37,179 bases of DNA, from the IMG/VR virus record IMGVR_UViG_2909303794_000005, one strand, 5' to 3'. A model generated the notes under the pieces. That model saw only the letters and a list, made by a program, of their open reading frames with translations. It ran no database searches and was not told where the DNA came from. Every line of letters begins with the position of its first letter. The first letter of the stretch is position 1. A program made the position numbers and the translations under genes. This DNA comes from a virus. Taxonomy: Duplodnaviria; Heunggongvirae; Uroviricota; Caudoviricetes. This document shows, one piece after another, positions 1 through 37,179 of this stretch.

Positions 1-273
1 ATGAACATCGGTAAAGCAATCATCAACTACGCAGCACGTCGCAACATGGACATTACCTTGATTGGCGATGAGGCCGTGGCGTTCTGGGAAGCGGATAACG
101 ATTGTGAATGGATGTTCTCCTACATGATTGGTAATGATGGTTTCCTCCACTTTAAAGGCAATGTGTATCTGCCGCAGGAGATTAAAGAAGAATTACCGGC
201 GTGCATCGATACAGACAAGAAGCTGAAAGAAGTAATCAACTTTATCGCTAAAGAGTTTATCAGCAAGAAGTAA
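1..273 (+). CDS. hypothetical protein, possibly 5'-truncated at window edge
   Basis: ORF begins at base 1; 90 aa, no recognisable motif. Confidence 0.35.
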   Translation: MNIGKAIINYAARRNMDITLIGDEAVAFWEADNDCEWMFSYMIGNDGFLHFKGNVYLPQEIKEELPACIDTDKKLKEVINFIAKEFISKK

Positions 274-285
274 GGCAGCAAAACA

Positions 286-672
286 ATGTTCAATATCATG
301 ATTCGTAAATTTGGTGAGATGACTTTCGAGAAAGCTGGTGTTGCGCGTACAGAAGAAGAAGCAATGGCCTTAGTTCTGGTAGCACTGAGATCATCACCTG
401 AGATTATCGACGCTGAATATGTTGCGGCTGAGGGTGAGATTAAAGAGATTAAAGCGGTGGCTAAGGAATTAGGTGTTAAAGGTTTCCGTAAGCTGAAACT
501 ATCCCGCGAGTCATATGTAATTGGTAAGCAAGGACAATACCTAGATGAGAATACCGTGATTATTCTACTGAATAAGATCACCCGCTATGGTTTCCAGATT
601 GAGCAATATAAAACGTGTTTCGAATTATACGAAAAAGGTTTGCTGGATACTCTGACCATCGTTCGCGCTTAA
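286..672 (+). CDS. hypothetical protein
   Basis: ATG at 286 with weak AAGG upstream; 128 aa, no recognisable domain. Confidence 0.4.
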   Translation: MFNIMIRKFGEMTFEKAGVARTEEEAMALVLVALRSSPEIIDAEYVAAEGEIKEIKAVAKELGVKGFRKLKLSRESYVIGKQGQYLDENTVIILLNKITRYGFQIEQYKTCFELYEKGLLDTLTIVRA

Positions 673-812
673 TTAATTTCTAATTTGGTGGGTGTAATTC
701 CCACCGCTTTTTAAATGGAGAATCAAACATGTTAGCTTTTATCTCATTCGTGGGAGGTAGTCTCACAACTATGATTAGTCTTTCTTATATTGTCGTTAGT
801 ATGGGGTGAGCA

Positions 813-938
813 ATGAAACAATTTCATGATGGCATTTCATCTAAGACATTCAAGAAAGAATATAGCGGATTGTGTATTAACTGGATTGATTTGATTGGTG
901 CGGTTGTGTTTGGTCTGGTAATTAGCATCAATTTTTAA
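813..938 (+). CDS. candidate small hydrophobic peptide (41 aa)
   Basis: ATG 813 after GGGGTGAG; translation MKQFHDGISSKTFKKEYSGLCINWIDLIGAVVFGLVISINF with hydrophobic C-terminus. Below ORF-track cutoff, speculative. Confidence 0.2.
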   Translation: MKQFHDGISSKTFKKEYSGLCINWIDLIGAVVFGLVISINF

Positions 939-983
939 CGATATAAATATATCGTAATTCAAATAACAAGAGGAAATTCTACT

Positions 984-1229
984 ATGAAAAAGATTATCGC
1001 GGGTATCGTTCTTGCTCTGGGTTTGGTTGGTGCTGCAAATGCCGAACAATATGTACAGGGTGATAGTGTCAAGCGTGCTGCCGTTGCACCTTCTTTAAAT
1101 CAACTGTGTACTGAATTAGCACAGATTGCCGGAGTTGGTGACGATGACGACTTTATTACTGCGTGTGTATGGAGTCATATCGAGGATATTAATAAACGTG
1201 ATGCAAAACTAACTGGAAAGAAATATTAA
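984..1229 (+). CDS. small secreted/periplasmic protein with Sec signal peptide
   Basis: RBS AGAGGA upstream of ATG; N-terminus MKKIIAGIVLALGLVGAANA then EQ (AxA signal peptidase I site, no lipobox); two Cys in the roughly 61 aa mature part. Confidence 0.6.
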   Translation: MKKIIAGIVLALGLVGAANAEQYVQGDSVKRAAVAPSLNQLCTELAQIAGVGDDDDFITACVWSHIEDINKRDAKLTGKKY

Positions 1230-1245
1230 TGACTTACTAACCAAT

Positions 1246-1279
1246 GCCCCTATCGTTATAATACGCGGTAGGGGCTTTT
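1246..1279 (+). terminator. rho-independent terminator
   Basis: GCCCCTA / TAGGGGC stem followed by TTTTTGTTTT directly after the 984-1229 stop. Confidence 0.6.
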
Positions 1280-1294
1280 TGTTTTGGAAATGGT

Positions 1295-2974
1295 ATGAAA
1301 ACTAAACTGTATTCGTATATTCGCTTCTCGTCTATGCGTCAGAGTGATGGTTCGAGTTATGAACGACAAATCAGGATGGCGAGAGAGATTGCGGCAAAGT
1401 ATGACCTTGAACTGGTAAATGATTATCAGGATCTGGGTGTATCTGCGTTTAAGGGTGCTAACTCCAAAACAGGGGCGCTATCTCGTTTCCTTGATGCAAT
1501 TGGTAGATCCGTTCCTGTTGGTAGCTGGCTATTCATCGAGAACTTGGACCGTTTATCCCGTGCCGATATTGTCAGTGCGCAGGAGTTATTCCTTTCAATA
1601 ATCCGTAGGGGGATAACCATTGTTACTGGCATGGATAACAAGATCTACTCGCTGGATACTGTTACCGCTAATCCGATGGACCTGATGTTCTCCATCCTTT
1701 TATTCATCCGTGGTAATGAGGAAAGCCAGACTAAGCGCAATCGTACTAACTCAAGCGCATTGATTAAGATTAAAGCTCATCAAGAAAATCCACAAAATCC
1801 GGCAGTGGCTATCGAGGAAGTTGGAAAGAATATGTGGTGGACTGATACCACTTCCGGTTATGTGCTGCCTCATCCGGTGTACTTCCCTGTTGTTCAGGAG
1901 ATTGTGGAATTACGGAAGAATGGACGTTCAACCGCCGAAATACTGGATCACCTTAACGAGACATATGCACCACCACCAGCGGTTAGTAATAAGAAGCATT
2001 CAAAATGGTCACGGGCAATGGTTGAAAGGTTGTTTCATACCCGCGCTTTGATTGGTATCAAGGAAATATCTGTAGATGGCGTTAACTATGAGTTAAAGGA
2101 TTATTACCCTCGTGTTATTGATGACCCTACGTTCTATCACCTTAAGAAAAATATTGGTGCTAGAGCATGGAACTTTGGAGACAAGGAAGAAGTTAAACCG
2201 ATCCCCCTGCTTAGTGGTATTGGCCTATTGAAATGTGATCATTGCGGTTGCGCTATGGTTAAAGTGAAGGGAACGAACAAACGTTCTGACCAGTATCGTT
2301 ATACATGTGATGCGACCCGTTCACGTAGACTTGATTGCGAGCATCCAAACTGGAGTTTTCGAGGTGATCAATTAGAGAAAGCTGTATTGCAATTGCTGGC
2401 TGATAAAATCTGGATTGCTGAGGACAAGGCTAATCCGGTTCCGGCGTTGAAAGTACAGGTTGATGAAATATCACGCAAGATTGATAACCTGATTGCCCTT
2501 TCTGCTATGACAGGAGCAACGAAGGAGCTAGCCGATCAGATTACTACCCTCAATAGCGAGCGTGAAACACTCTACAATCAGATCAAGATGGCAGAAGAGG
2601 AAATGTATTCTGTTGACTCTCAAGGCTGGGAGAAGCTCGCAGAATTTGATTTAGAAGATGTTTACAACGAGGAACGACTAAAGGTCCGGTTTAAGATTAA
2701 GCAAGCTCTAAAGCGGATCGGGTGTAGCAGGATTGACAGAAACAAAAACTTGTTTGTACTGGAATACATCGATGGAAAGACCCAGAGAGTTGTAATAGAA
2801 AATTCAAGAGGAACGAGGAAAGGACAAATCTTTGTCGATTTGAAGACCATCAATGATAGGCAGATTCTGGAGAGTAACGGGCTTGTTCTGCATCCATGTT
2901 TAGACATGCTGACAGATAAAGACTGGAAACCAGAAGAGGAAATACCAGGTCCATTACAGGAATTTGGAATTTAA
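1295..2974 (+). CDS. large serine recombinase (serine integrase/resolvase superfamily)
   Basis: N-terminal resolvase catalytic motif YIRFSSMRQ...RQ, Cys-rich zinc-ribbon segment CDHCGC...C...C, C-terminal coiled-coil; 559 aa is typical of large serine recombinases. Confidence 0.85.
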   Translation: MKTKLYSYIRFSSMRQSDGSSYERQIRMAREIAAKYDLELVNDYQDLGVSAFKGANSKTGALSRFLDAIGRSVPVGSWLFIENLDRLSRADIVSAQELFLSIIRRGITIVTGMDNKIYSLDTVTANPMDLMFSILLFIRGNEESQTKRNRTNSSALIKIKAHQENPQNPAVAIEEVGKNMWWTDTTSGYVLPHPVYFPVVQEIVELRKNGRSTAEILDHLNETYAPPPAVSNKKHSKWSRAMVERLFHTRALIGIKEISVDGVNYELKDYYPRVIDDPTFYHLKKNIGARAWNFGDKEEVKPIPLLSGIGLLKCDHCGCAMVKVKGTNKRSDQYRYTCDATRSRRLDCEHPNWSFRGDQLEKAVLQLLADKIWIAEDKANPVPALKVQVDEISRKIDNLIALSAMTGATKELADQITTLNSERETLYNQIKMAEEEMYSVDSQGWEKLAEFDLEDVYNEERLKVRFKIKQALKRIGCSRIDRNKNLFVLEYIDGKTQRVVIENSRGTRKGQIFVDLKTINDRQILESNGLVLHPCLDMLTDKDWKPEEEIPGPLQEFGI

Positions 2975-3010
2975 GCGGCCTAAATCGACGTATAACGAGC
3001 TAAACGCTTT

Positions 3011-3040
3011 AAGGGGTACATTCGTACCCCTTTTTAATTT
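3011..3040. terminator. bidirectional rho-independent terminator between convergent genes
   Basis: AGGGGTAC / GTACCCCT stem, loop ATTC, flanked by T-runs on both strands. Confidence 0.6.
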
Positions 3041-3047
3041 AATTGCG

Positions 3048-4223
3048 TTAGGCAGCGTCTAAGAGAGTATTAAAGTATTCATCCATTAAATCAGGACTGT
3101 CGTCATCAATACAGAAAAATTCTGGTTTATTGATGCCGTAGAAGTGAGTATGTAGCTTGAATGTATCCTCATCAAATACATCTTTCGGAGATACCCACAT
3201 ATTAGCCTCGTCCGGTTGATTGGTTAGGTAGTCATAAACCAGTTGTTGTAAGTGTGGTAACTCATCAATAGTCAGAGTTTCCGACCATCCATCCTTGAAA
3301 TCTTTGTAGGGTGCGGCGTGAGTCTTGAAGCGTTGTTTTACTTCATGCTCTAAATCGGCAGCTTTCCAACCATCCTCAAACTCATGAGTAAAGATTAAGC
3401 GGTGAGTGAAGTTGCTCTTTCTGGTTTGTTCTCTCATTCGTTCTTCTGGTTTTCGGGTAGTGATTCCAAATTTAATAAATTTGTCATCTAATAATTGAAT
3501 GTAGAAACTAGCCTTACCCTGATAAGTCCGGTTAGACAGTTGCACCAGTTGGTCTTTAATGCAAAGCGGACAAGTGAAAGAATCAGCACATCTTAAATGA
3601 GATTCCCATTCGTGGTTATGTGACTTGCAATAGGTTTTAAATTTAACATCCTTTAGGTGTGGGGTGTTTATGATGAATCCTTTGAAGATGTAAGGTGTAG
3701 TCTCGCAACGTGCATTGATGAGTGTCTCTTTGTCCTTAATAACTTCATCAAAAGTCTTGCCACTTCTTACCCGTTGGGATTTTTCAGCCATACAGATTTT
3801 ACAATCAAAATCAAAATCATCCTTGAGAGCATGTAATAGAGATGGCGTCATGATTTGATTGTGTATAGGACACAAAACACGGGCTTTTGTCTTGTTGCGC
3901 CCTTTCCATTCTCCTTGCCATCCTAGAAACTTCTTTCCCTTCTCATTACAACGAGATTCCATTTTCAACCATACAGCCTTTTCAGTCTGGAATAACTCAC
4001 CCCCGTTAGTATCTTCCAGTTTGCGTAATTTGTAGTCCTTATATTCTTGTGTGTCTAAATTGTATAACCGGAAGTAAGTATGATTACCTTTCCACGGTAG
4101 GATAAATCCACCAAATACAAAAGTAGGTTCCAGTTTAGTGATGATTCGTTGTTGGTACTCTTCCGGCGATAAACCGCGAGTTTTCTTAACAAAAGGAATT
4201 TCGGCAGCGTAAGCAAGTTTCAT
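3048..4223 (-). CDS. T5orf172/GIY-YIG-like domain protein with Cys-rich zinc-ribbon-like region
   Basis: Start chosen at internal ATG (MKLAYAAEIPF) with RBS GAGGA 7 nt upstream, not the upstream ATG of the 428 aa ORF. Motif FYIQLLDDKFIKFGITTRKPEERMREQ...DGWSETL matches the T5orf172 pattern from memory; CxxC pairs in the N-terminal half. Confidence 0.45.
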   Translation of the reverse strand: MKLAYAAEIPFVKKTRGLSPEEYQQRIITKLEPTFVFGGFILPWKGNHTYFRLYNLDTQEYKDYKLRKLEDTNGGELFQTEKAVWLKMESRCNEKGKKFLGWQGEWKGRNKTKARVLCPIHNQIMTPSLLHALKDDFDFDCKICMAEKSQRVRSGKTFDEVIKDKETLINARCETTPYIFKGFIINTPHLKDVKFKTYCKSHNHEWESHLRCADSFTCPLCIKDQLVQLSNRTYQGKASFYIQLLDDKFIKFGITTRKPEERMREQTRKSNFTHRLIFTHEFEDGWKAADLEHEVKQRFKTHAAPYKDFKDGWSETLTIDELPHLQQLVYDYLTNQPDEANMWVSPKDVFDEDTFKLHTHFYGINKPEFFCIDDDSPDLMDEYFNTLLDAA

Positions 4224-4378
4224 AGTAGTTTCCTCTAAAATAATAAGCTCACTACTATTTATTAGAGAAAATTGTCTTACTATTGCATTCTCTATCTGAA
4301 TGTGTATAATACGCGACCCTAAATCCCAAACCAACCATATTGAGGTTATGCCTATAAGTTAAAAAAAGTGAGGTCTAT

Positions 4379-4948
4379 ATGATTCCAGTAATGGCTAAAG
4401 ATATTGTTTTTACTCCTAAATCCTCCCGTGCTGTAACTCCATCGGCATTAGAACAACGCATTCTGACTCACATCAAAGATAAGGACTTACCATTAGTCTT
4501 TCATGGCTTTCTGGGTGAGTTTAAAGGGCTTCATTCAAGAATTGCTCTAACATGTACCCGATGCGGTAATAGAGCCGACAAATCAGCTACTAACCTGCTT
4601 AATGAAGGTAAACGATGTGTTTGCTTCAATAGTGACTACTTTCAATATAAAGCGGGTGTGCCTTATCTCTATGTAATGAAGTCTGGGGATATTGGTAAAT
4701 TTGGTGTTACAAAGTCAATCATCAAGCGACGTGTTAATCTGGGTGTACGCAATCCCGGTCATAACTTTGATATTGTCTTTGCTGGTGAAATGCCATCAAT
4801 GAAACATGCACTAGCCACTGAAAGAGCAATAAAGAGATTACTGGATGTGGGTATAGGCGGGATTGAATACGGCAAAACTGAAACATTCCACTACTGCAAT
4901 AAATCACTAAACAATATAAAGAATATTGCAAGTGTGGAGTGGAACTAA
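4379..4948 (+). CDS. T5orf172/GIY-YIG-like domain protein with zinc-ribbon-like N-terminus
   Basis: RBS GTGAGG before ATG 4379; CTRCGN...CVC cysteine cluster, then YLYVMKSGDIGKFGVTKS...RR...GKTETF resembling the T5orf172 domain. Confidence 0.45.
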   Translation: MIPVMAKDIVFTPKSSRAVTPSALEQRILTHIKDKDLPLVFHGFLGEFKGLHSRIALTCTRCGNRADKSATNLLNEGKRCVCFNSDYFQYKAGVPYLYVMKSGDIGKFGVTKSIIKRRVNLGVRNPGHNFDIVFAGEMPSMKHALATERAIKRLLDVGIGGIEYGKTETFHYCNKSLNNIKNIASVEWN

Positions 4949-6438
4949 TGCAAGATATTAAAATTCATTTTCAAGATTACAGTTTCGTTAAGGTTGATTG
5001 CTCTCCTTCTATCGGAATGGAATTAAGAGATTATTTCTCTTTTGAGGTTGAAGGGGCTAGGTTTAGCCCCCGATACAAGTATTCAGGCTGGGATGGACGA
5101 ATAAGACTGTTTACGCATGAAAATACCCTACCAATTGGACTATTAAAAACATTGGGTGTCTTCGTTAAAAATATGGGGTATTCAGTCTGGATTGACCCGC
5201 GATTGCTTGAGAAGGAAGATGTAACCAAAGAACAGATTGATTCATGGATTGACTCTTTAGAAGTGTATTCCGGTTCCAATAAAATCAATCCTTACTGGTA
5301 TCAGCGTGAGGCAGTCTTTCAGGGTATTCATAATCGCCGTAGAATGCTGGTTCTTCCTACCAGTGCGGGTAAGTCATTGATTGCTTGTATGCTGTCTCGT
5401 TGGTACTTAGAGCATTACACCGGAAAGGTGTTAATCATTGTCCCGACTACATCGCTAGTGGTTCAAATGAGGGATGATTTCATCGATTATCGGTTATTCC
5501 CTTATGAAGCAATCCATACAATGATGAGTGGTAGCGGGAAACATCCGGGAGACAGGTTAATCACGGTTAGTACCTGGCAATCAGCTTGCAAGATGCCCCC
5601 TGAATGGTTCAAACAATATGGAATGTTGATAGTTGATGAATCGCATAAGGCTAGTGCCAAAAATATTACCAATATCATCAATGGAATGAATCATTGCCAG
5701 TTTAAAATCGGCATGACTGGTTCCCCGAAAGAATCAAAATGCCATCTTTTACAGTATGTCGGGCTTTTCGGTGATATTTCTAAGATCGTGAGTATTGACC
5801 GCCTGATGGAAGAAGGCCAGGTGACAAAACTGAAAATTAACTGTCTTTTCCTTCGTTATACCGATGAGGAATGTAGCGCGGTTAAGGGTAGAGAATATGC
5901 GGAAGAGATCAAGTATATTACGTCTAACCCACGACGTAATAAGTTTGCTTGTAATTTGGCGCTAAAACTCGCTAAGAAGGGCGAAAACGTATTCCTTATG
6001 TTCCGCAATACTAAGCACGGAAAACTTATGTATGATGCGTTACAGAAGGTACACGACAAGGTTTATTATATTGACGGTGGAGTTAAGACAGAAGAACGTG
6101 ATGAATTTAAGAAAATGGCGGAGGGTGACACCGGGATCATTTGTGTTGCGTCTTATGGTGTGTTCTCTACTGGTGTTTCAATTAAGAATTTGCACCATGT
6201 TATTTTCGGTCATCCAGTGAAGGAATCAACTATCGTTCGTCAGAGTATCGGTCGTGCATTGCGTAAACATGGTTCTAAGGATATTGCAACGGTCTGGGAT
6301 CTTATCGATCATTTGTGTATATTTGGTCGTAACGGAAAAATCAAGCATAAAAATTATGCGGTAAAACATGCACTTGAGAGAATCCGCTATTATCTGACCG
6401 ACAAGTTCAGCTATGCAACTAAAACAATTGCTATATAA
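4948..6438 (+). CDS. uvsW: UvsW-like SF2 DNA helicase
   Basis: ATG 4948 overlaps the upstream stop (TAATG) with GGAG 7 nt upstream. N-terminus MQDIKIHFQDYSFVKVDC and later blocks (LPTSAGKS Walker A, DESH, VASYGVFSTGVSIKNLHH, GRALRKHGSKDIATVWDLID) closely resemble T4 UvsW as recalled. The ORF track's upstream GTG at 4939 is less likely. Confidence 0.85.
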   Translation: MQDIKIHFQDYSFVKVDCSPSIGMELRDYFSFEVEGARFSPRYKYSGWDGRIRLFTHENTLPIGLLKTLGVFVKNMGYSVWIDPRLLEKEDVTKEQIDSWIDSLEVYSGSNKINPYWYQREAVFQGIHNRRRMLVLPTSAGKSLIACMLSRWYLEHYTGKVLIIVPTTSLVVQMRDDFIDYRLFPYEAIHTMMSGSGKHPGDRLITVSTWQSACKMPPEWFKQYGMLIVDESHKASAKNITNIINGMNHCQFKIGMTGSPKESKCHLLQYVGLFGDISKIVSIDRLMEEGQVTKLKINCLFLRYTDEECSAVKGREYAEEIKYITSNPRRNKFACNLALKLAKKGENVFLMFRNTKHGKLMYDALQKVHDKVYYIDGGVKTEERDEFKKMAEGDTGIICVASYGVFSTGVSIKNLHHVIFGHPVKESTIVRQSIGRALRKHGSKDIATVWDLIDHLCIFGRNGKIKHKNYAVKHALERIRYYLTDKFSYATKTIAI

Positions 6439-19136: not shown

Positions 19137-22100
19137 TTATTTAGTTGCTTTGAGTTCGGCAATTTCTTTCTGTAATGCTTCGATCTGGGCTTTATATTTG
19201 GCGTCCATTTCCTGAATAGCTTTAATAATCAAGGCATTAACAGCGGAGTTAGAAATTGTTAAGATCTCTTCTGGCTTATCTGGATCTCCGATCTTTGAGG
19301 TTGTTACTGCTTCCGGCAATTCTTTTTCAAGATCCTGAGCAATAATACCAACTTCATGAGCAATGACAGTACGGTCGGTTAAAGACTTAACCTTATCGTA
19401 GGTGTACACAGTCAAGCGATTAATTTTATCGGTTGCATTCTCTTTATACTCTTCCTTGTTGATTTTAAGGCGAGCATCAGAACGAATATACACATCGTTA
19501 AAGTTACCATTGCGACCAGCTTGGAAATCACCGGAGGCGTTAAAGTCAAAGTTTGTGGTATGAATATGAAGACGTGCCATAGCATTAGTAATAACACCAC
19601 TAGGAACGTGTACACCCATTGCTGCGATGTGGTCTAAACCCCATTTGGTCGCTTTCCATACGTTATATGCGGAAGTTTGAGCATTAGGACAATCAACCAA
19701 TAAGCCAGCAGCGCGAGTTTTCCATTCTGACCATGCACCACCTTGTACTTCTCCGCGAATCAAACCACGGTCGCTACCGTTTGCATACCCACGTTCTAAG
19801 CGAATCATACCAGTCTGGAAAACATGGTCAAATTCTCCGCTGTTATAGTTTCGAATGCGCATTTGACCTGTGCTATCACCCCAGATAACACCACGGTTAG
19901 TACCATTAGCATCCTTAAACCAGAGTTCTTTATTACCATCTCTATACATCTGAATTTGGTTATTGGTACGCAAAACATTAGTAACCACCAAATCACCATT
20001 TATCTGAGCACGACCACCCGTTTCTAAACTACCAGCAACTCTGAATTGAATCGAACCGTTAGAATCACGCTGAGAATATAGATGATAGCTTGTTTCGTCA
20101 GCAAGTTCCCACACCTGAGCGCGAGAAGTTCCATTACCCCAATTCTTAATAAAAAATCTAGATGCAGATCCTTCGCTACGTTCCCAATATAATCGAGACC
20201 CTAAATGTGTTGTTGCATTTATTTCTACTTGACGATTTTCATTGTTGAGACGCATTAAATGATTACCAGCATCACTACCACCTAGTGTAACGTTACCATT
20301 GGCTAGGCTATAGATGAACGGCCTAAAGGTATTCCACGGACCCATAGTGTCGCCTGATTTTGTGCTCATCAGATAAACGTTACTACCGTCATTTCGCCAC
20401 CATGAACCATAGTTACCATATACAGTACGGAAGCCATCAGCATATAAAGAAATGAATTGACCGTTGGTATAGACTCGCTTCATGTTACCTGTCTGAAATT
20501 CGATCTGTCCGTCGATATGTTGACGAATAGAACTGCCACCTACATCGCTATACCATTCAAAAACGTTAGTATCAGCATTGGCATAACCGATCCAACCTTG
20601 ACGCGTAATATTTCCAGTCCGGTTATCTTGAAACGCAATGTGGTTAGATTGACCAGCAGGTCGGCGTAGTGTAATGACATTAGATCCGCCATTTAACAGC
20701 ATACGACCAGAAATAATATTACCCTTATGAGTTCCGGCAATTGAGCTACTAGATTCAATAGTCATAATTTCCTGAGCATCAGTGCTACCAGTAGCCAGAC
20801 GATAGCTGGCACCTTGAACAGTCTCATGCCAGATCATTTCATTATAGTTACTACGGAATTTACGAATATATTTTCGTCCAGTACCCCTATCATTACTCAA
20901 GTGAACAATATCATAACTGTTTTGTGTGTTATCGTCAAAACTCAACACACCACGTTTATTTTCAGTATTAAAAAGAGTTACGTTGCGACCACCGATAACA
21001 CCAACGGAAGGTTTAATTAACGTGGCTTCCGGCGTATCATAAACCGTCAAACTTACATAAACAGATTTCCCATATTCGACAATAACGTTATCGGTATAAC
21101 GCTGATATTTCACGTAGATATCATAGTTATCACCGGAAGTATTGACAGCAAATACCTCAAAATCTTTGTTTGTATTTCTACGGTATGCAATTACGTTAAG
21201 ACCTTTAGGTCTATCGTTACCACTACGCAGAAGAATTTCTACTACGTCAACCTGATCATATGCCGTAACGTTGTAACCATTACCACCATGAATACGGAAA
21301 AACACACTACGCCCGTTTTGTGGAATTGTTGCGGTTGCCAATTTGAAATATGCAGATACGTTTTCGCTAGAATTAGGAACAGACATAGTGACGTTTTTAA
21401 CAAACATCTTGTCAACTTCTGCTTTAGTGTATGCACCGATTTCGCCAGGAGTCGGCTTATCACCTTCGTGATACATCTTATAGCTAAAGTTCTTCTGTCC
21501 TTCTCTATCAAAACCATAGGTTTCAACACGAGATCCACCAGACGCATAACGGAAAGTAAATCCGCGACCGTGAGCTTTACCGGCAGAGTGAGGAACGTTA
21601 AGAGTTAGATCCATGAGTCCATCTTGACCATTGGTACGGAAAGCACCAAAGTAGTTAAGATCTCTCGCTGTCTGGTCTTCCAAATAGTTAGCTGTTTTGG
21701 TTAACAGATACCCGCCGTGCTTAGTGTTGGTATTCTTCTTGATGTAAAGAGCATCGTTACTACCTTCAATACCATCAATTCGACGGTTAGCGGCTGCGAT
21801 CGCTGAATCAGTATCAGTTTTGTTTTTGTCAACCTTTGCGTTAATAGCGGTATGGTTGCTATTCACCGTCCCTGTAAGGTTACTGATTTTAGTATCAGCA
21901 TCGCGTTTATTGTTCGCTACCGTAGTTTCAATGGCTGATTTGTTAGCTGCAACGGTACTCGTTAAGCTGGAGATCTTGGAATCAGCATCAGACTTGTTAG
22001 CTGTAACGGTTTTGGTCAGATTGCTAACATTGGTGTTAGTGGTATCAACACGGCTATTGATCGCGGTGTTATTGTCATTAACCGTCGTGGTTAAAGCTGC

Positions 22101-22577
22101 GATTTTATTGTCCGCATCTCGTTTATTATTTGCTACAGTAGTTTCTATAGCTGATTTGTTAGATGCAACTGTCCCCGTAAGGTTATTGATCTTAGTATCA
22201 GCATCGGTTTTATTTGCCGTGACTGTCTGGGTTAAGTTACTAACCGTGGTGTTAGTAGCATCAATGCGCTTATTGGTCGCTGTATCTTTCGTGGTAATAG
22301 TCTGATTCAGTTCAGCTTTAGCACTAGCCAGATTATTAGCGGCTTCTTGTTTGTTGGAAGCAATAACACGGTCAGTGCTAGTTTTGTTATTGTCTACTTT
22401 AGTGTTAAGTTCAGCGTGTTTTTCTGGAGAAACACTAATTTGGACTACGTTATTATTTTTGTCTTTGGTGTAAATCACATGATCCGCCAACTGTAAGGCG
22501 ATTTCACCCTGTGATAATTGTTCCGGCGTTGGCTTTTTACCAGCCGTCTGTGTGCGTTTAAATTGGATCGACTGCAT
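19137..22577 (-). CDS. tail fibre with C-terminal intramolecular chaperone (peptidase S74-like) domain
   Basis: RBS GTGAGGTGA upstream; 1146 aa; C-terminal SDARLK...LTDRTVIAHEVGIIAQDL...AVNALIIKAIQEMDAKY resembles the self-cleaving chaperone domain of T5 L-shaped fibre / endosialidases as recalled. Confidence 0.8.
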   Translation of the reverse strand: MQSIQFKRTQTAGKKPTPEQLSQGEIALQLADHVIYTKDKNNNVVQISVSPEKHAELNTKVDNNKTSTDRVIASNKQEAANNLASAKAELNQTITTKDTATNKRIDATNTTVSNLTQTVTANKTDADTKINNLTGTVASNKSAIETTVANNKRDADNKIAALTTTVNDNNTAINSRVDTTNTNVSNLTKTVTANKSDADSKISSLTSTVAANKSAIETTVANNKRDADTKISNLTGTVNSNHTAINAKVDKNKTDTDSAIAAANRRIDGIEGSNDALYIKKNTNTKHGGYLLTKTANYLEDQTARDLNYFGAFRTNGQDGLMDLTLNVPHSAGKAHGRGFTFRYASGGSRVETYGFDREGQKNFSYKMYHEGDKPTPGEIGAYTKAEVDKMFVKNVTMSVPNSSENVSAYFKLATATIPQNGRSVFFRIHGGNGYNVTAYDQVDVVEILLRSGNDRPKGLNVIAYRRNTNKDFEVFAVNTSGDNYDIYVKYQRYTDNVIVEYGKSVYVSLTVYDTPEATLIKPSVGVIGGRNVTLFNTENKRGVLSFDDNTQNSYDIVHLSNDRGTGRKYIRKFRSNYNEMIWHETVQGASYRLATGSTDAQEIMTIESSSSIAGTHKGNIISGRMLLNGGSNVITLRRPAGQSNHIAFQDNRTGNITRQGWIGYANADTNVFEWYSDVGGSSIRQHIDGQIEFQTGNMKRVYTNGQFISLYADGFRTVYGNYGSWWRNDGSNVYLMSTKSGDTMGPWNTFRPFIYSLANGNVTLGGSDAGNHLMRLNNENRQVEINATTHLGSRLYWERSEGSASRFFIKNWGNGTSRAQVWELADETSYHLYSQRDSNGSIQFRVAGSLETGGRAQINGDLVVTNVLRTNNQIQMYRDGNKELWFKDANGTNRGVIWGDSTGQMRIRNYNSGEFDHVFQTGMIRLERGYANGSDRGLIRGEVQGGAWSEWKTRAAGLLVDCPNAQTSAYNVWKATKWGLDHIAAMGVHVPSGVITNAMARLHIHTTNFDFNASGDFQAGRNGNFNDVYIRSDARLKINKEEYKENATDKINRLTVYTYDKVKSLTDRTVIAHEVGIIAQDLEKELPEAVTTSKIGDPDKPEEILTISNSAVNALIIKAIQEMDAKYKAQIEALQKEIAELKATK
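19140..19481 (-). other. intramolecular chaperone domain of tail fibre (predicted autoproteolytic release)
   Basis: Begins at the Ser of IR-SDARLK (residue about 1033); domain boundary inferred from the family motif. Confidence 0.55.
21831..22265 (-). repeat. in-frame tandem repeat in tail fibre N-terminal shaft
   Basis: Two near-identical 72-73 aa units (DATNTTVSNLTQTVTANKTDADTKINNLTGTV... and DTTNTNVSNLTKTVTANKSDADSKISSLTSTV...) with about 24 aa sub-periodicity. Confidence 0.6.
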
Positions 22578-28484: not shown

Positions 28485-30392
28485 TTAGAACGATGTTACC
28501 CAACTACGGCCTCTATTTGGACGTCTGGCGATGTTTTTACGTTGTGGTCGTGTGATTGGCTTAGTTTCTTCGATTTGCTCGTTAGATTGCGATTTAGGAG
28601 CTTCTACGGGTTCTTCGACAACACGGTTTAAGCTGTCTTTCATTGCAATGAGTTTATCCCATGACATTTTTGAAAGGACGTAGCGAGAAGCCGCTGTAGC
28701 ATACACGGCGCAGTCGAGCGCCTCGTTTCGTGTCGCACCTGGATTTTTTACCCATCTCACGCCAGTAGTAGTACGCTTAACAGATTCACTTAAAAGCTGA
28801 TCGAGATAATCATCAGGAACGGTGTCTGATATTTCTAAGGCAATATGAGGATTATCTTTCAGGTTCCTAGCCAACATTTCACGAAATGCAGTTTTACCCA
28901 CGTTAACACCCAACATAAGCAATTCATGACCACCTGTGCGGGTAGGTTTAACCGGAATGATCGGAGCGTTACCAGCAGAACTACCTTTGATAGCGTGTAA
29001 GTTCTTCCACTTGCCGCAAATACGGTATCCAGCTTGAGTGAATCGACCGTTCGATGTATCAAGGAAGCTGGCGAGCATAGGAACACGATCACCCGATACA
29101 GTAGTAAATTTGGTTTTATGGAAGTTGATTAATCTATCCCATACAGGGGATTCATATCGTTCACAGTTATGATCGTAAAAGCTACGGTGATCCAGAATGT
29201 AAACCTTATCTTTCGCTACACCTAAGATGGTAGTTTCTGCGCGATCTAATTGCTGGTCAGTACCCGCACATAAGAAAATCACGTCATCAGGGATATTCTC
29301 GATAGAAACATCTGTTTTGAGTTGTTCCAGTTCATTTGCTTCTACTGCCGTGTCCTGATCGTCGTATACCTTACCTAACACGGTGTTATAAAATGATTGT
29401 AAATCAAAGGATTGCCACGCATGACTAAAATCAACCACACAAGCGCGGATACTACTGAAAGGTGAATACAGACGGCTAATCCAGAATCCTGCTACCTCAC
29501 TTTCACGGGTTGCTCTCCACTCTCCTTGTGCTACTGCCCTGATTCGTTCCCCTTCTGTCCATGCGTTCTTACAGTGGGGGCAAATATAACGAGCGGTATC
29601 AGGATCGGGTAAGTTCTTACCATCGATGTTACGCCATTCAAATTGAACGTTTTCCCACTCGATCACCTGGTGTTCCCCGCAATGAGGACACGGAACAAAA
29701 AACATACGCATATCGCTTGATAACCATTGCTGGTTAATGCTTCCCAGCTTACTGGTCGGGGTACTGGATACGACTAATCGACCTTCATCGCCAAAGGTAG
29801 TTAAACGGTTAGCAGCCAGTGCCACCGGATCACCTTCTTCTGAGGCTGTAGCAGCATCGATTTCGTCAAGCAATCCAACCTTTGCGGTCTTACCACGTAG
29901 GGTCGATGGACTGGTTAGCGATACCATGTAAAGGAAGTGATTCGTTTTTAGCTGGAGTTGGTTATTGTTGTTAACCGCATTGCGATCATTCTTGTCTGTA
30001 ACAACGTCTTTTAATGCATCACATGCTTCGATAGACGGTCGGATCTTACCAGCGAGATATTGAGACATTTCTTTAGCGGTTGATTGTCCGATAATCATAT
30101 TGCATGGATCGTTAGCCATCTGGTTAAACAGGATGCCGTTCAGGATGGTAGTCTTTCCGATCTGCGCACTGGTCATCAGAACATACTTTTTCTTATTCTC
30201 AAGGAAAGGAGCATCAATCATGCCTTTCTGGAATGACAGCAATTTAACTTTATCCCCAGCTTGAGGACCATCTACCAGCACCATATTCGCTTCGCACCAT
30301 TCCGATGGAAGGAGTTTAGGCGGTGGCGTAATATATTTGGCTGCATTTCTGAGAATCTTTTTTAATTTGGCCTTATTAGAAATCAGTTTCAT
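28485..30392 (-). CDS. terL: terminase large subunit (lambda gpA family)
   Basis: Walker [10 protein letters not shown], paired CPHCGEH...CPHCKN zinc-finger typical of GpA-type terminases, C-terminal nuclease region; RBS GAGGGT upstream. Confidence 0.9.
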
Positions 30393-30477: not shown

Positions 30478-31080
30478 ATGCTAATTAATCAGCAACAAAG
30501 AGATGAATTAGAATTAGCCTTGTCTTGTACCGATCATGAATATCGTTTGCCAGTTAAGCATAAGCATTTAAAAACCGACTACACTACATCTGGCTTTAGT
30601 CGTGAGGAAGCGAAAGAGATTTTAATAGAATTTTACCGCGATAATGGTTATACAGACGTTCACAACTTCTTTAAGAAGCATAGAACATCGCATACAGAGT
30701 TTCGGAGAGTCCGAGATTGGTTTGATTTTGATATCAAGCGTTATTATCGCATTGATGACGGTCCTATCTATCGGTTGCAGTGGAAGCCGATCCGAGAAGT
30801 GTTGAAACAGAAGAGATTGAATCACGCAATTACACGCTATCGTAACGAGGCTTTCAAGAAAGGCTATGGTGATACAAGGGAACTATTCGTTGAACTCGCT
30901 AACGTGCGTTATAGCCACTATTACAACGATCCTAAAGGGTTCTTTGAAGTGCTTCGCAAGGTTGATATTAGTCGGGGTACATACTATTCACGGTTGAAGA
31001 AGTACGGGATTAAGGCAGAGTTCTTTATGTCGGTTGACGATGGAGAACTTTTTCCTATAAAATGTAAGTCCTCTAAATAA
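30478..31080 (+). CDS. hypothetical DNA-binding protein with C-terminal HTH-like motif
   Basis: RBS AAAGGGGG; C-terminal [15 protein letters not shown] resembles the HTH of the two small proteins at 31116 and 34720. Confidence 0.45.
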
Positions 31081-31115
31081 AGGTGAACATTCACTTTAAT
31101 TTGGAGAAAATGACT

Positions 31116-31343
31116 ATGACTACTAAAGCTACTCGCGGTCGCCCTGCCCGTTTTAACGCTGAACAGATGGCTGATATTGCCTACGCTTACTATACAGCGG
31201 ATCGTGGTAAGGAAGCGAAAGAACAGATTCTTAGTGAACATGGGATCTCAATCGCCCAATTCTATAAGAATATGAAGAAGTTAGACATTAAATTCTATGT
31301 TCAGATCGGTGATGGTCAGATCGTAGAAGCAACAGGTTTTTGA
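31116..31343 (+). CDS. small AT-hook/HTH DNA-binding protein
   Basis: ATG 31116 has better SD spacing (GGAG 9 nt upstream) than in-frame ATG 31110 or GTG 31083; KATRGRPARF (AT-hook-like) and GISIAQFYKNMKKLDIK (IS3 OrfA-like HTH). Confidence 0.5.
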   Translation: MTTKATRGRPARFNAEQMADIAYAYYTADRGKEAKEQILSEHGISIAQFYKNMKKLDIKFYVQIGDGQIVEATGF

Positions 31344-31507: not shown

Positions 31508-32338
31508 TCACAGTCCGAAGACTTCCAGTGATCCAACATTCTGGCGGAGACGTTCAGCTGCTTTATTTTGAATCAGAATAGTGTTGTTCGGCTTAGGAAG
31601 ATTCAGAGTTGCTTTTTGTTCTTCTTCCAGAACACCCAATTCAACCAGCACCGGAAGCACATCAACAGTAAACTCAAGCTGGTAGTGAGCATTCATGCGG
31701 CAGAAAGACAGAGAAGAGTCATTAGCAACATACCCACACGGCTTGTTATTTTCATCATAGACGCGCTCAATGTAGCCAGCAGTACGCAAGGCCGTCAGTG
31801 CTTCTTTAACCTTCGTAGCGCCCTTTTTAGCGCCTAACAGACGTGTCATAGAATGGCTATCTACGGATTTGCGAATGTGTAGCTCAATCAGTTTTTTATT
31901 TTTGCGTTTTTCATCTAATGCCAGTTCGATCCAGTCTGTTTCTTCAAAGTGTTCATATGGATTAACCGGAACATTAGCTTTACCTTCTTTCATCAAACGC
32001 CATTCTTTAGCAATTTTGAAGCGAAGCGGTGCATCGTATCCCATAACCAGAGTATTACAGAGATCTTCATCCAGTTCATACATCGGGCGAGATTGATTAT
32101 TCTTATCAAAATATGAAGATTCTACAAAATACCCCAGCGCAAAATTGCGCCCGGCTAATTCGCTTCCTTTTTCAAGAGAATCAATCATGCGACGAAAATC
32201 ACGCATAACATCTTTATGATTCTTTCCGGTCAATTCAGCAATCTGACGGGTAGACATGGTCAGCGGTTTGGTGTTATCAACAACCAGAGACACGGAAGCA
32301 GTTTTAACAGCAGTATTCATAGTAGTAACAGTATTCAT
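31508..32338 (-). CDS. Rha-family phage regulatory protein (antirepressor-like)
   Basis: N-terminal TMSTRQIAELTGKNHKDVMRDFRRMIDSL matches the Rha-domain pattern as recalled; RBS AAGGGGA upstream. Confidence 0.7.
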   Translation of the reverse strand: MNTVTTMNTAVKTASVSLVVDNTKPLTMSTRQIAELTGKNHKDVMRDFRRMIDSLEKGSELAGRNFALGYFVESSYFDKNNQSRPMYELDEDLCNTLVMGYDAPLRFKIAKEWRLMKEGKANVPVNPYEHFEETDWIELALDEKRKNKKLIELHIRKSVDSHSMTRLLGAKKGATKVKEALTALRTAGYIERVYDENNKPCGYVANDSSLSFCRMNAHYQLEFTVDVLPVLVELGVLEEEQKATLNLPKPNNTILIQNKAAERLRQNVGSLEVFGL

Positions 32339-32880: not shown

Positions 32881-33333
32881 TTACAGCATATCTAAGCCTT
32901 CATCGTAACCGTAGAAGCCATTCTGAGAAGAGAAACAGATTGGCGCGTAGTCGTCGTCATCTTCGTCTTGTTCATCTCGTTCTGGGGCTTCCTGAGCGGG
33001 TTGTTTACCATAATCAGCCATAATCTGGTCAAGATCGGCGATCCCATAGTAAGAGCCTAAATCAACGTCATATTCACGAACATCAAACGGCAGGTCATCA
33101 CGAACAATAATTGCCGGAATGTTGTTGTATTGTTCACGACCTTCATCAGTAAAGCAGTCTACGATCACCGTAGGGCGACCATTACGTTTAAGAGCATAGA
33201 AAGCAGTTGAGAAATTGGAGTCTTCGGAATGACGAATGATGTTATAACCACGATTAGCGAAAACATGCATCATAGCCAGATTATCATCATGGTTCAGACC
33301 CAGAAGAATGAAAGGAGTTTTAGTATTGATCAT
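32881..33333 (-). CDS. hypothetical acidic protein
   Basis: RBS AGAGGA upstream; 150 aa with Asp/Glu-rich C-terminal region. Confidence 0.45.
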   Translation of the reverse strand: MINTKTPFILLGLNHDDNLAMMHVFANRGYNIIRHSEDSNFSTAFYALKRNGRPTVIVDCFTDEGREQYNNIPAIIVRDDLPFDVREYDVDLGSYYGIADLDQIMADYGKQPAQEAPERDEQDEDDDDYAPICFSSQNGFYGYDEGLDML

Positions 33334-34016
33334 AGTGGAAATCCTCTAAAAAGTGAATCAAAGTAAGTTCACTATTATTTATAACGAGAAATTTTTGTCT
33401 AATTTGAAAGGAATTGGTATTCAGTCGGCTTCGCCTCCTTCATAGATTTTGATTAAATCATCATCAAAACGAAGAAGTATCTTTAGAATATAAGAATCTT
33501 TCTTTTGGAGAAATAATAATCCGGAAGCAATTTAGCAACCGAAGGTTGCAATCCCGAAGGGATACCAATACCTTTCATGATCATTAAAGTGATCTAGAAT
33601 CATCTAGTAACCAGTTAACTACTATTATCTTCAAAGTGATTATTACTATCTTTCTAGAATCAGTTAGTAACTAGTTTAAAATCCCTTTCAAGAAAATCCT
33701 TTCAAAAGTGATTCTCGATGCCACGCAGTGGCGTCGCAGACGTTTGAGAGTGAGCGAAGCGAGCGAGCAAACTAGTTAATTCCTTCTAAGACCATCTAGT
33801 ATCATCTAGTTTAAATTAGTGTTACTAGAAGTAATTGGTTAGCGCTTCGCGCAGTCGGGCTACGCCCTCCTAATATCTTTTTGGTTATTTGTTGTTTTTG
33901 GTTTTACACATGAGCGTAGCGAATGTGTTATATAATATCTATGCACGCCCGATTCCCCGTTTTTGCCCCTCACTAAGTTAATGTTTTATAAAGAGTTTTT
34001 CTTACCAATCCTTTTC

Positions 34017-34201
34017 GGGGGCAAATTTCAGGGGCAAAAATTAGATTTTCAGGGGCAATTATTGGCATTTCAGGGGCAAAAATGAGGGGCAAAATCACCG
34101 TTTCCCAGAATTTCAGGGGCAAAAATATTGGGTTTCAGGGGCAAAAATGGGATGTGGAATCTAGGGTATTTTGGTTCAGGGGCAAAAATTCAGGGGCAAT
34201 T
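34017..34201 (+). repeat. iteron array: 9 direct copies of (TTC)AGGGGCAA(AAAT)
   Basis: GGGGCAA cores at 34018, 34031, 34052, 34073, 34086, 34116, 34138, 34179, 34193, spaced 13-41 bp; an inverted copy at 33961-33969. Confidence 0.8.
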
Positions 34202-34240
34202 TTCATAGTGTAGGGCTAGTGTAGGTTTGAAAATCCTTTG

Positions 34241-34298
34241 TTGACACTGTGTAGGATCGGTGCTACACTTGACAATTAGAGAAAAAATGTGGTATAAT
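34241..34298 (+). promoter_or_regulatory. tandem strong sigma70 promoters
   Basis: TTGACA (34241) -17- TACACT, and TTGACA (34269) -18- TGgTATAAT (extended -10, 34290-34298). Confidence 0.65.
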
Positions 34299-34662
34299 AT
34301 TTGTATTGAAAGTGAAAATTTACCGATTTTCCTTCCTATTGTTATCACCGTGTTAAATTGTTATATGTCTGTGAAGATTTGGATCTGAGAGAAAATCTTG
34401 TAACAAATCTTTACAATTCATAGCTCAATTAATGCTCACCGCTTTAGCAAAAAGTGCTATGCAATTTTCTAAATTGATTGAATAAACATCAATTTGGTTA
34501 ATTCGTGTTCTTCTCTTTAGCAATTCGTGCTGCGGTTTAACACATTTAACACGTCTGATAACATCTGAATAACATTTTAACATATCTCTGTTATAAATAC
34601 ATATATAAGAGATAAATGTGAGGGGTTGAAAAATAAAATACAATCCCCATATAAATAATAGT

Positions 34663-34683
34663 GAGCGGTTAACGCTCTTTTTT
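34663..34683 (+). terminator. weak terminator/attenuator before the 34720 gene
   Basis: GAGCG GTTAA CGCTC followed by TTTTTT, located before the AGGAGG RBS. Confidence 0.45.
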
Positions 34684-34719
34684 AAGAAATCATTAATCCA
34701 CATTGTAGGAGGATTCGAG

Positions 34720-34902
34720 ATGGCACGACCTGTTAAGTTCACTCGCGAAATCATCTTAGAAATGGCTAAACGCTACTTTGAGTTAACGCCGGGTGTGAGA
34801 ATTGAAGAGTGGTTTAAAAATGAGGGTATCGATAAATCAACCTTTCATAAACTCTTAAAGAAGTATGACATTAAAGTAAAGATTACCGCCGAGGTCTGGT
34901 AA
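34720..34902 (+). CDS. small HTH DNA-binding protein (paralogue of 31116-31343)
   Basis: Strong RBS AGGAGG 7 nt upstream; MARPVKF...NEGIDKSTFHKLLKKYDIK parallels RGRPARF...HGISIAQFYKNMKKLDIK. Confidence 0.5.
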   Translation: MARPVKFTREIILEMAKRYFELTPGVRIEEWFKNEGIDKSTFHKLLKKYDIKVKITAEVW

Positions 34903-36624: not shown

Positions 36625-37179
36625 TTAAGACACATCAAATTCATCGTCTTCTTCTGGTTCTTGTTCTTCCGGTTCATCCATTAATGGTAATTCTTCTTCC
36701 TCGTCTTCTCCCAAATCTGCATTTTCGAACAAGTCCCCTACTTCATTTAAACGACGCTCGATGATCTCCCTTAGCTTATTCTTCAATGTTTTCTGATCAG
36801 TGGCAGATTCAAGAATTTCTAAAGCGTCGATTGTGGCGATCTGCAAAATAGTCTGTTTCACCTTCCCGCAATATTCCGCTAGTTCCTGTTCTACATAACC
36901 GACCGGAATCAGGAGATTCATTGCTTCCTGGTTCTCTCGTTCGGCTGCATCCGCTAATGCTCTCTCACGGCGTAATTTCTCTACGTCGATTTGTTCCTTG
37001 ACAGTAGTTTCTTTAAGCGGGTTGATAATATTTTTCAAGACCCATTCTGTTCCTTCTTTGGCTGGCACGCGTCGTGTATTGGTATTAAATGGCATTCCTC
37101 GTTCTTGCCATTTCTTAGCGGCGTTGATTGTATAGCCGTATAAACGGGAAATTTCTGTAAGGGTTAATTCTTCTTTCAT
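36625..37179 (-). CDS. terminase small subunit-like protein (Nu1-type HTH); start at or beyond window edge
   Basis: N-terminal LTLTEISRLYGYTINAAKKWQERGMPF then EKLRRERA resembles lambda Nu1 (winged HTH, W.E.GMP) as recalled; acidic C-terminal tail. Confidence 0.55.
   Translation of the reverse strand: MKEELTLTEISRLYGYTINAAKKWQERGMPFNTNTRRVPAKEGTEWVLKNIINPLKETTVKEQIDVEKLRRERALADAAERENQEAMNLLIPVGYVEQELAEYCGKVKQTILQIATIDALEILESATDQKTLKNKLREIIERRLNEVGDLFENADLGEDEEEELPLMDEPEEQEPEEDDEFDVS

Follow-up and report, generated by a model that had tools for sequence, protein, structure and literature searches.

Serine integrases are valued tools for genome engineering; the well-described members come mostly from Gram-positive hosts, and prophages of Escherichia coli mostly use tyrosine integrases. 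Some serine-integrase elements split host genes, as do SPβ with SprA (spsM), the Bacillus subtilis skin element with SpoIVCA (sigK) and A118 (comK) (PMC5499854, and in part general knowledge). A minimal non-palindromic core, a palindromic phage attachment site (attP) and a bacterial attachment site (attB) within a gene are the signature of a serine rather than a tyrosine integrase (PMC3783163). The gene considered here, int, lies near one end of a 37,179-nucleotide stretch of viral DNA (Caudoviricetes; IMG/VR virus record IMGVR_UViG_2909303794_000005), which is called the window at its full length. It is very probably the integrase of a temperate siphovirus-type phage of E. coli/Shigella that inserts in ycdX, because its product has the full architecture of such enzymes and an invariant active site, integrated copies with exact junctions exist, attP is symmetrical and the element has no other integrase. 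A preliminary description of the window had suggested a phage integrase and thus a phage that may integrate or lysogenise; integrated copies do exist and their junctions (attL and attR) have been defined, which bears out that suggestion, and recombination activity itself is presumed.

The open reading frame (ORF) encodes a genuine large serine recombinase (LSR) of complete build, as had been proposed from the sequence, and the ORF, Pfam, AlphaFold2 and Foldseek agree on this. The gene and its domains, including the recombinase domain (RD) and zinc-ribbon domain (ZD), are as follows.

1295..2974, + strand: large serine recombinase (integrase) gene, ATG start, 559 amino acids (ORF, Pfam, PHROG 95, AlphaFold2, Foldseek)
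1295..1789, + strand: catalytic domain and long αE helix, amino acids 1–165 (PF00239, 3GUV alignment, invariant residues, model helix)
1862..2164, + strand: RD, amino acids ~190–290 (PF07508)
2207..2410, + strand: ZD, amino acids ~305–372, with C314, C317, C338 and C348 (PF13408, invariant cysteines)
2411..2659, + strand: coiled-coil hairpin, amino acids ~373–455 (AlphaFold2 helices)
2660..2971, + strand: C-terminal β-rich extension, amino acids ~456–559 (AlphaFold2 strands)

Pfam scanning of the full-length protein places Recombinase (PF07508) at amino acids 198–287 (35 bits; cut-off 21.1 bits) and Zn_ribbon_recom (PF13408) at amino acids 310–368 (42 bits, above the curated cut-off). The Resolvase domain (PF00239), which Pfam missed in the full-length scan, was found at amino acids 6–152 when the N-terminal 160 residues were scanned alone (57 bits, E 2.4e-15), and the PHROG 95 'integrase' profile matches amino acids 2–484 (E 1e-62). 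When the protein was split by domain, its sole PDB sequence match was the catalytic domain of 3GUV, in which YTRVST is aligned with the catalytic serine motif YIRFSS (S12); PDB sequence searches with the full-length integrase and with the C-terminal 399 residues alone gave no match. The catalytic residues, for which the preliminary description had advised a careful alignment, are intact: R10, S12, D85, R86 and R89 are invariant in 24 aligned homologues with identity down to ~30%, as are the zinc-ribbon residues C314, C317, C338 and C348 in the same alignment. We take the five catalytic residues to be the counterparts of R8, S10, D67, R68 and R71 of γδ resolvase.

The AlphaFold2 model (mean predicted local distance difference test score [pLDDT] 77.7) begins with an α/β catalytic domain, followed by a long αE helix (residues 127–164), a helical RD (196–290) and a ZD in the form of a β-ribbon (312–356). 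An antiparallel helical hairpin (382–406 and 410–437; pLDDT ~75–88) supports the prediction of a coiled-coil motif emerging from the ZD. An extra β-rich C-terminal domain (strands within 472–533, pLDDT ~75–90) completes the model, and this extension has no Pfam match in either full-length or split scans. In a Foldseek search of the PDB, the top matches are without exception full-length serine integrases, alone or in complex with DNA (9dxf, 9dxh, 9y66, ϕC31 9tep/9rah and the Listeria LI integrase 4KIS; probability 1.0, 13–16% identity), and the model aligns over its full length with the cryo-EM chains of ϕC31 and other integrases. By analogy with known LSR–DNA structures, to which the 4KIS match leads, the RD would contact DNA as the inner att half-site binding module.

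An identical integrase protein represents a 975-member cluster from E. coli/Shigella. Relatives occur in Salmonella (70–77% identity), Escherichia fergusonii (74%) and Edwardsiella (60%), beyond which identity falls to ~40%, and none of them is named more precisely than 'recombinase family protein'.

The search of host genomes for prophages with int, also advised in the preliminary description, was productive. Of 5,426 complete E. coli genomes, 56 have a copy of window positions 700–3100 (90–99% identity), in every case on the chromosome. Junction searches found ycdX attL in ~26 genomes and attR in the same 26, in which a 36.9-kb prophage splits ycdX; 5,395 further genomes match only the host half of each junction query, and most are without the prophage. 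In the best match, NZ_AP027850.1, the prophage is flanked by ycdX pseudogene fragments (the left one 'missing N-terminus', the right one 'missing C-terminus') that lie between the ycdY–csgG side and the ghrA side, and its annotation by the Prokaryotic Genome Annotation Pipeline (PGAP) includes no other integrase, tyrosine type included, and no transposase. Every inspected contig with the window's exact integrase is 98.5–98.6% identical to the window and has the csgG–ycdZ–ycdY locus and the same attL. Strains with these junctions come from several continents and from varied hosts: humans, pigs, chickens, a dog, a cat and a frog. The phage is temperate in that host chromosomes carry its complete genome between attL and attR, while the site is unoccupied in other strains. 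A plasmid or phage-plasmid origin was also considered and rejected: there are no close plasmid copies, the best being 43.5% identical.

The att sites were derived by aligning the prophage junctions with the uninterrupted ycdX of MG1655, which gave the following sequences.

attB, ycdX codons ~134–136 of 245: CATATTTGGGA-TT-TCCGGGATGG
attL: ...TTTGGGA-TT-CCCTAATATCATG...
attR: ...ACGTTCGGG-TT-TCCGGGATGG...
attP, reconstructed: ...GTGTTATTGGGGGTTGACTACGTTCGGG-TT-CCCTAATATCATGTACCCACAATAACAC...
attP, predicted, 60 bp: AAAATCGGTGTTATTGGGGGTTGACTACGTTCGGGTTCCCTAATATCATGTACCCACAATAACACGAGGGGG

TT is the only dinucleotide that fits both junctions under a 2-bp staggered exchange, and it is non-palindromic. 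Apart from TT, attB and attP have almost no identity. The attP arms form an imperfect inverted repeat of ~56 bp (20/28 positions); the dyad score has a background of 7.1 ± 2.4 over the window, and a score of at least 19 is reached at 1 of ~37,000 positions. The 2-bp core, the slight attB/attP identity and the attP dyad are therefore the signature of a serine integrase. In addition, phage-side similarity in 16 attR matches stops 25–35 bp from TT, i.e. at one half-site length, which suggests a constraint on the site itself.

From TT to TT the prophage measures 36,860 bp. The window is an excerpt of this integrated siphovirus-type prophage from which the att cores are excluded: its position 1 is the first prophage ATG (L001:19302 in the numbering of one host locus), with the attL TT 44 bp upstream (L001:19258-19259), and its end is the start codon of the last prophage gene (L002:14295 at the other locus), with the attR TT 370 bp beyond (L002:14665). 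The organisation that had been described as lytic-looking is thus that of an integrated prophage, which the window covers from the first gene to the last. A serine integrase in a 'lytic-looking' phage is no longer puzzling once the sequence is read as a prophage with this gene as its integrase. In the excised circle, attP would lie between the small terminase gene and the ORF at 1..273, ~1.34 kb upstream of int.

For the reaction itself, catalysis, directionality and the need for a recombination directionality factor (RDF) are modelled on characterised serine integrases. Integrase dimers would bind the ~56-bp imperfectly palindromic attP and the attB inside ycdX, and the attP-bound and attB-bound dimers would synapse through their coiled coils. 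S12 would then make double-strand cuts at the central 5′-TT dinucleotide, and a 180° rotation of subunits followed by religation of the ends would insert the 36.9-kb genome and split ycdX. For excision the phage would have to encode an RDF, and an exact exchange at the TT core would make ycdX whole again.

Relatives of the integrase are associated with three target genes, as listed here.

E. coli, window type: ycdX codons ~134–136, attB TTTGGGA-TT-TCCGGG
Salmonella, 72% identical enzyme: ycdX at the homologous position, TT with the same CCCTAATAT arm
E. coli, 92% identical enzyme: hicB antitoxin gene at ~codon 102, attB TTTAGGT-TT-GCCAAT, attP ...TTGACTACATTCGGG-TT-CCCTAATATCATG...
E. fergusonii, 74% identical enzyme: codB cytosine permease gene at ~codon 122, attB GGTTGCC-TT-ACCCACC

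Across three genera, prophages of the ycdX, hicB and codB types all have int in the same place, by the left end. The ycdX and hicB enzymes differ by 44 substitutions, of which 30 lie within amino acids 196–351 (binomial p = 3e-8). They diverge by 16.7% in the RD and 20.3% in the ZD; the corresponding values for the catalytic domain and the coiled coil are only 1.3% and 3.9%, and the coiled-coil hairpin is 96–98% conserved. Four hicB enzymes are 98–100% identical to one another in the RD and 96–100% in the ZD. The catalytic domain of one of them, from ETEC1717, is nevertheless closer to that of the codB enzyme (95% identity) than to those of the remaining hicB enzymes (81–82%). In these comparisons the DNA-binding RD–ZD module thus follows the target gene and the catalytic module is reshuffled, in that the hicB enzymes share RD and ZD even though one has a catalytic domain of another lineage. 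The RD of the Salmonella ycdX enzyme is quite divergent (65%), so that two enzymes can share a target gene without having similar domains. Roles of the RD and ZD in att-site recognition are known, and the tracking of the target by RD–ZD fits them. Within the preferred explanation, the RD–ZD module would determine which host gene is used: ycdX, hicB or codB.

A further idea is put forward tentatively, as a possibility that is rather less likely than not to hold: the lineage may retarget by swapping an RD–ZD 'specificity cassette', with the catalytic domain, coiled coil, TT and most of attP kept constant, which would yield near-isogenic, mutually orthogonal ycdX, hicB and codB integrases, and insertion in ycdX or in the DNA-binding tail of HicB may act as a reversible host-gene switch.

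Some hicB loci have features of their own. The phage-sized contigs carrying P0013 and P0014 are integrated hicB-type prophages. In strain PI7 (L007 5223-5731), the HicB antitoxin loses its C-terminal third, from ~codon 102 of 138, to the prophage insertion, and the adjoining hicA toxin gene of this lysogen is annotated as frameshifted. NZ_CP043414.1 (L005 5900-10460) has a degraded hicB-type remnant with an attL-like junction (TT-GCCTAATATCATG...), which keeps an IS3 pseudogene, an LprI-family gene and two hicB fragments and is without integrase or structural genes.

Several observations weigh against assignment of int to a working temperate phage. The attP junction pattern GACTACRTTCGGGTTCCCTAATAT had 0 matches in IMG/VR viral, JGI metagenome and GTDB representative genome contigs, a weak negative for collections of assemblies. 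Pfam and PHROGs recognised no repressor, excisionase/RDF or replication initiator. Three small ORFs separate attP from int, whereas the two are more tightly linked in many serine-integrase phages. The capsid is at most 46% identical to that of an isolated phage, and none of these phages resembles the prophage. The absence of the excised attP form from the three collections and the lack of a related isolate are also what a defective remnant would give, in which the recombinase is an inactive fossil that integrated once and is now vertically inherited; the IS200/IS605 transposase insertion in the window copy and the clearly degraded remnant at hicB in NZ_CP043414.1 point the same way. Such a history is nevertheless unlikely. 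The ORF is full-length and its catalytic residues are invariant, within the 975-member cluster as well as between genera; the phage retains complete structural and lysis modules; and the same junctions recur in strains of varied hosts and continents, whereas the 5,395 genomes noted above keep host sequence on both sides. Moreover, close relatives use three different target genes, and such diversity requires recent mobility.

The closest phage homologues of the integrase are YbcK-type genes of lambdoid phages (~31% identity), which are not the integrases of those phages; serine recombinases have been reported beside defence systems, and variable cargo lies directly downstream of int. These points would suit an accessory gene (a YbcK-like recombinase, an invertase or resolvase, or a marker of a defence cassette) in an element integrated by something else, but this is very improbable, given that no other integrase is annotated in the element, that the core, the minimal attB/attP identity and the palindromic attP are of serine and not tyrosine type, and that the RD–ZD sequence co-varies with the target gene. 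Nor does an inverted-repeat invertible segment flank int, or PADLOC match the recombinase or the adjoining CapR proteins. The window likewise fails to place int among defence-island-associated serine recombinases: no anti-phage defence system recognised by PADLOC adjoins it. Least credible of all, to the point of being almost negligible, is the arrival of a small transposon-like element (TnpX or IS607-style) in an otherwise lytic phage. It would accommodate the terminator-like hairpins on both sides of int and the lack of DNA similarity to known phages over window positions 1–5000, but the junctions enclose the whole 36.9-kb phage and not int alone, and the position of int by the left end is constant in ycdX-, hicB- and codB-type prophages from three genera. 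An integrase that inserts its temperate phage in ycdX is thus the preferred explanation.

The gene map is that of a ~37-kb siphovirus-type genome, with complete structural and lysis modules.

1..273 and 286..672, + strand: two small ORFs between attL and int at the left prophage end (PHROGs 6147 and 14908, unknown function)
14759..17188: tape measure protein gene
28485..30392, − strand: large terminase gene, λ gpA-like
31508..32338: Rha-family regulator gene
36625..37179, − strand: small terminase subunit gene at the right prophage end (PHROG 57, 2.8e-15)
siphovirus-type module: portal gene, fused protease/major head protein gene and major tail protein gene
siphovirus-type module: tail tip and fibre genes, M15 endolysin gene

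The small terminase gene adjoins attR, and ~6 kb of regulatory and unknown genes separates it from the large terminase gene, an unusual split of packaging genes. Window positions 1–5000 have no meaningful DNA match in 50,697 phage records. An IS200/IS605-type transposase gene (8549-9052, − strand; PHROG 720, E 1e-78) lies between lysis/tail accessory genes and the tail-tip gene; this tnpA is not in the otherwise ~99% identical prophage of NZ_AP027850.1 and explains most of the ~730-bp difference in length.

Three genes resemble those of T4-type phages. A distal long-tail-fibre gene of T-even style lies at 19137-22577 (− strand), within which the DNA at ~19206-21710 is 81–93% identical to gp37 of RB49-like Krischvirus; a Gp38-like adhesin gene lies at 17923-18429 (− strand); and a uvsW-like helicase gene at 4939-6438 (+ strand) is 78–82% identical to Krischvirus uvsW. 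A T4-like phage, which the uvsW and tail-fibre matches to Krischvirus (78–93%) might have suggested, is ruled out by the ~37-kb siphovirus map and the chromosomal context. The tail-fibre, Gp38-like and uvsW-like genes point to recent gene exchange between the temperate prophage and virulent T4-type phages.

The immediate surroundings of int contain the following features.

984..1229, + strand: gene of an 81-amino-acid secreted protein, just upstream of int (ORF, signal peptide)
1246..1275, + strand: strong terminator-like hairpin of 11 pairs, 20 bp upstream of the int ATG (pattern scan, sequence)
3011..3032, + strand: terminator-like hairpin and T-tract after the int stop codon, between convergent genes (pattern scan)
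3048..6438: variable cargo beside int, two CapR/T5orf172 (GIY-YIG-like) genes and the UvsW-like helicase gene (Pfam, PHROG)

The small secreted protein gene noted earlier beside int is present as described: its product has a typical Sec signal peptide (MKKIIAGIVLALGLVGAANA/EQ) and no family match in Pfam, PHROG or PADLOC scans, and the gene is kept in ycdX-, hicB- and codB-type prophages (loci L001, L008, L010, L013-L017). The preliminary description had also treated int as an isolated, moron-like unit with its own terminator. The hairpin at 3011-3032 agrees with the terminator, but a moron-like stray it is not, since int is the integration module near attP and the sole integrase. The loop of the upstream hairpin holds a perfect TATAAT (GCCCCTATCGTTATAATACGCGGTAGGGGC), and no consensus promoter for int was found between this hairpin and the start codon; the hairpin could control integrase expression by read-through or via an embedded promoter. 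The cargo belongs to a slot, from the integrase to the endolysin, whose content varies among related prophages: a Salmonella relative adds UvsY (L009), strain PI7 has an empty slot (L004), and ETEC1717 and L017 have different hypothetical genes. In PADLOC, the recombinase and its CapR/T5orf172 neighbours had no match and the helicase had only generic helicase matches. Rfam and tRNA scans gave nothing relevant.

The impression that no CI-like repressor is evident, only a Rha-like regulator, was confirmed with Pfam and PHROGs, which found no CI/Cro or S24 peptidase domain, only the Rha-family regulator and small helix-turn-helix (HTH)-like ORFs. Three of these on the + strand (30478-31080, 31083-31343 and 34720-34902; 200, 86 and 60 amino acids) end in a similar HTH-like motif (...YY/FH.LKKY[DG]IK) and have no family match; they look paralogous and are candidate regulators or RDFs. 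Upstream of the last of them is an AT-rich stretch of ~1.4 kb (33300-34720) in which no ORF is convincing. Here TTTCAGGGGCAA is repeated directly at least six times at intervals of ~21 bp (34013-34199) and also has copies in inverted orientation (33955-33972), TCTAGAATCATCTAGTA occurs four times (33593-33811), and a perfect σ70 consensus promoter, TTGACA-18-TATAAT with an extended −10, lies at 34269-34298. This iteron-like region is a candidate origin, operator or centromere, and a candidate lysogeny control region.

The locus yields an E. coli-native serine integrase with predicted attP and attB sequences. Natural variants that are ~92% identical have different targets, with the differences concentrated in the two DNA-binding domains, and offer a compact natural resource for studying how serine integrases encode their target specificity. 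The definition of ycdX, hicB and codB as prophage insertion sites also aids prophage annotation. A literature search found no paper tying ycdX to a prophage or integration site, and none for hicB as an integration site, the papers retrieved for hicB and attB being irrelevant (codB was not searched). Neither the att strings nor the protein strings occur in the supplements of Durrant et al. (2022), the main LSR catalogue, in a set that may be incomplete. None of this departs from the known serine-integrase paradigm, and the finding is not conceptually surprising.

Several known systems come close to this integrase in part. The best homologues in the phage database, also from E. coli, are YbcK (DLP12) and proteins of phages 4A7 and Perceval (~31% over 80% of the protein, E 1e-43). 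Genes of the YbcK type are internal, no att sites are assigned to them, and the phages that carry them encode a tyrosine integrase of their own, whereas int is at the prophage end and is the sole integrase. The Burkholderia phages Bcep22, Bcep176 and JC1 encode full-length LSRs in Gram-negative hosts (27–30% over 85–94%) and differ in phage type and host. XisF of the fdxN element (NCBIfam NF041201) is weakly matched over the RD, ZD and coiled coil (48 bits against a cut-off of 375), and the integrase is not a member of that family.

As with SPβ SprA (spsM), skin SpoIVCA (sigK) and A118 (comK), the prophage splits a coding sequence that precise excision at a 2-bp core would rebuild; the comparison covers the splitting of genes, not regulated excision or an effect of ycdX reconstitution. 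With phage large serine integrases in general the system shares its short att sites, its palindromic attP, its intragenic attB and its 2-bp non-palindromic crossover, although identity to the characterised ones is only 13–20% and no PDB sequence match extends outside the catalytic domain. The integrase resembles ϕC31 Int, Bxb1 gp35, Listeria A118/LI Int and TP901-1 Int in its domain order (catalytic domain, αE, RD, and ZD with an inserted coiled coil), and differs from ϕC31, Bxb1, A118 and TP901-1 in its enterobacterial host, its extra ~100-amino-acid β-rich C-terminal domain and the targets of its lineage, ycdX, hicB and codB.

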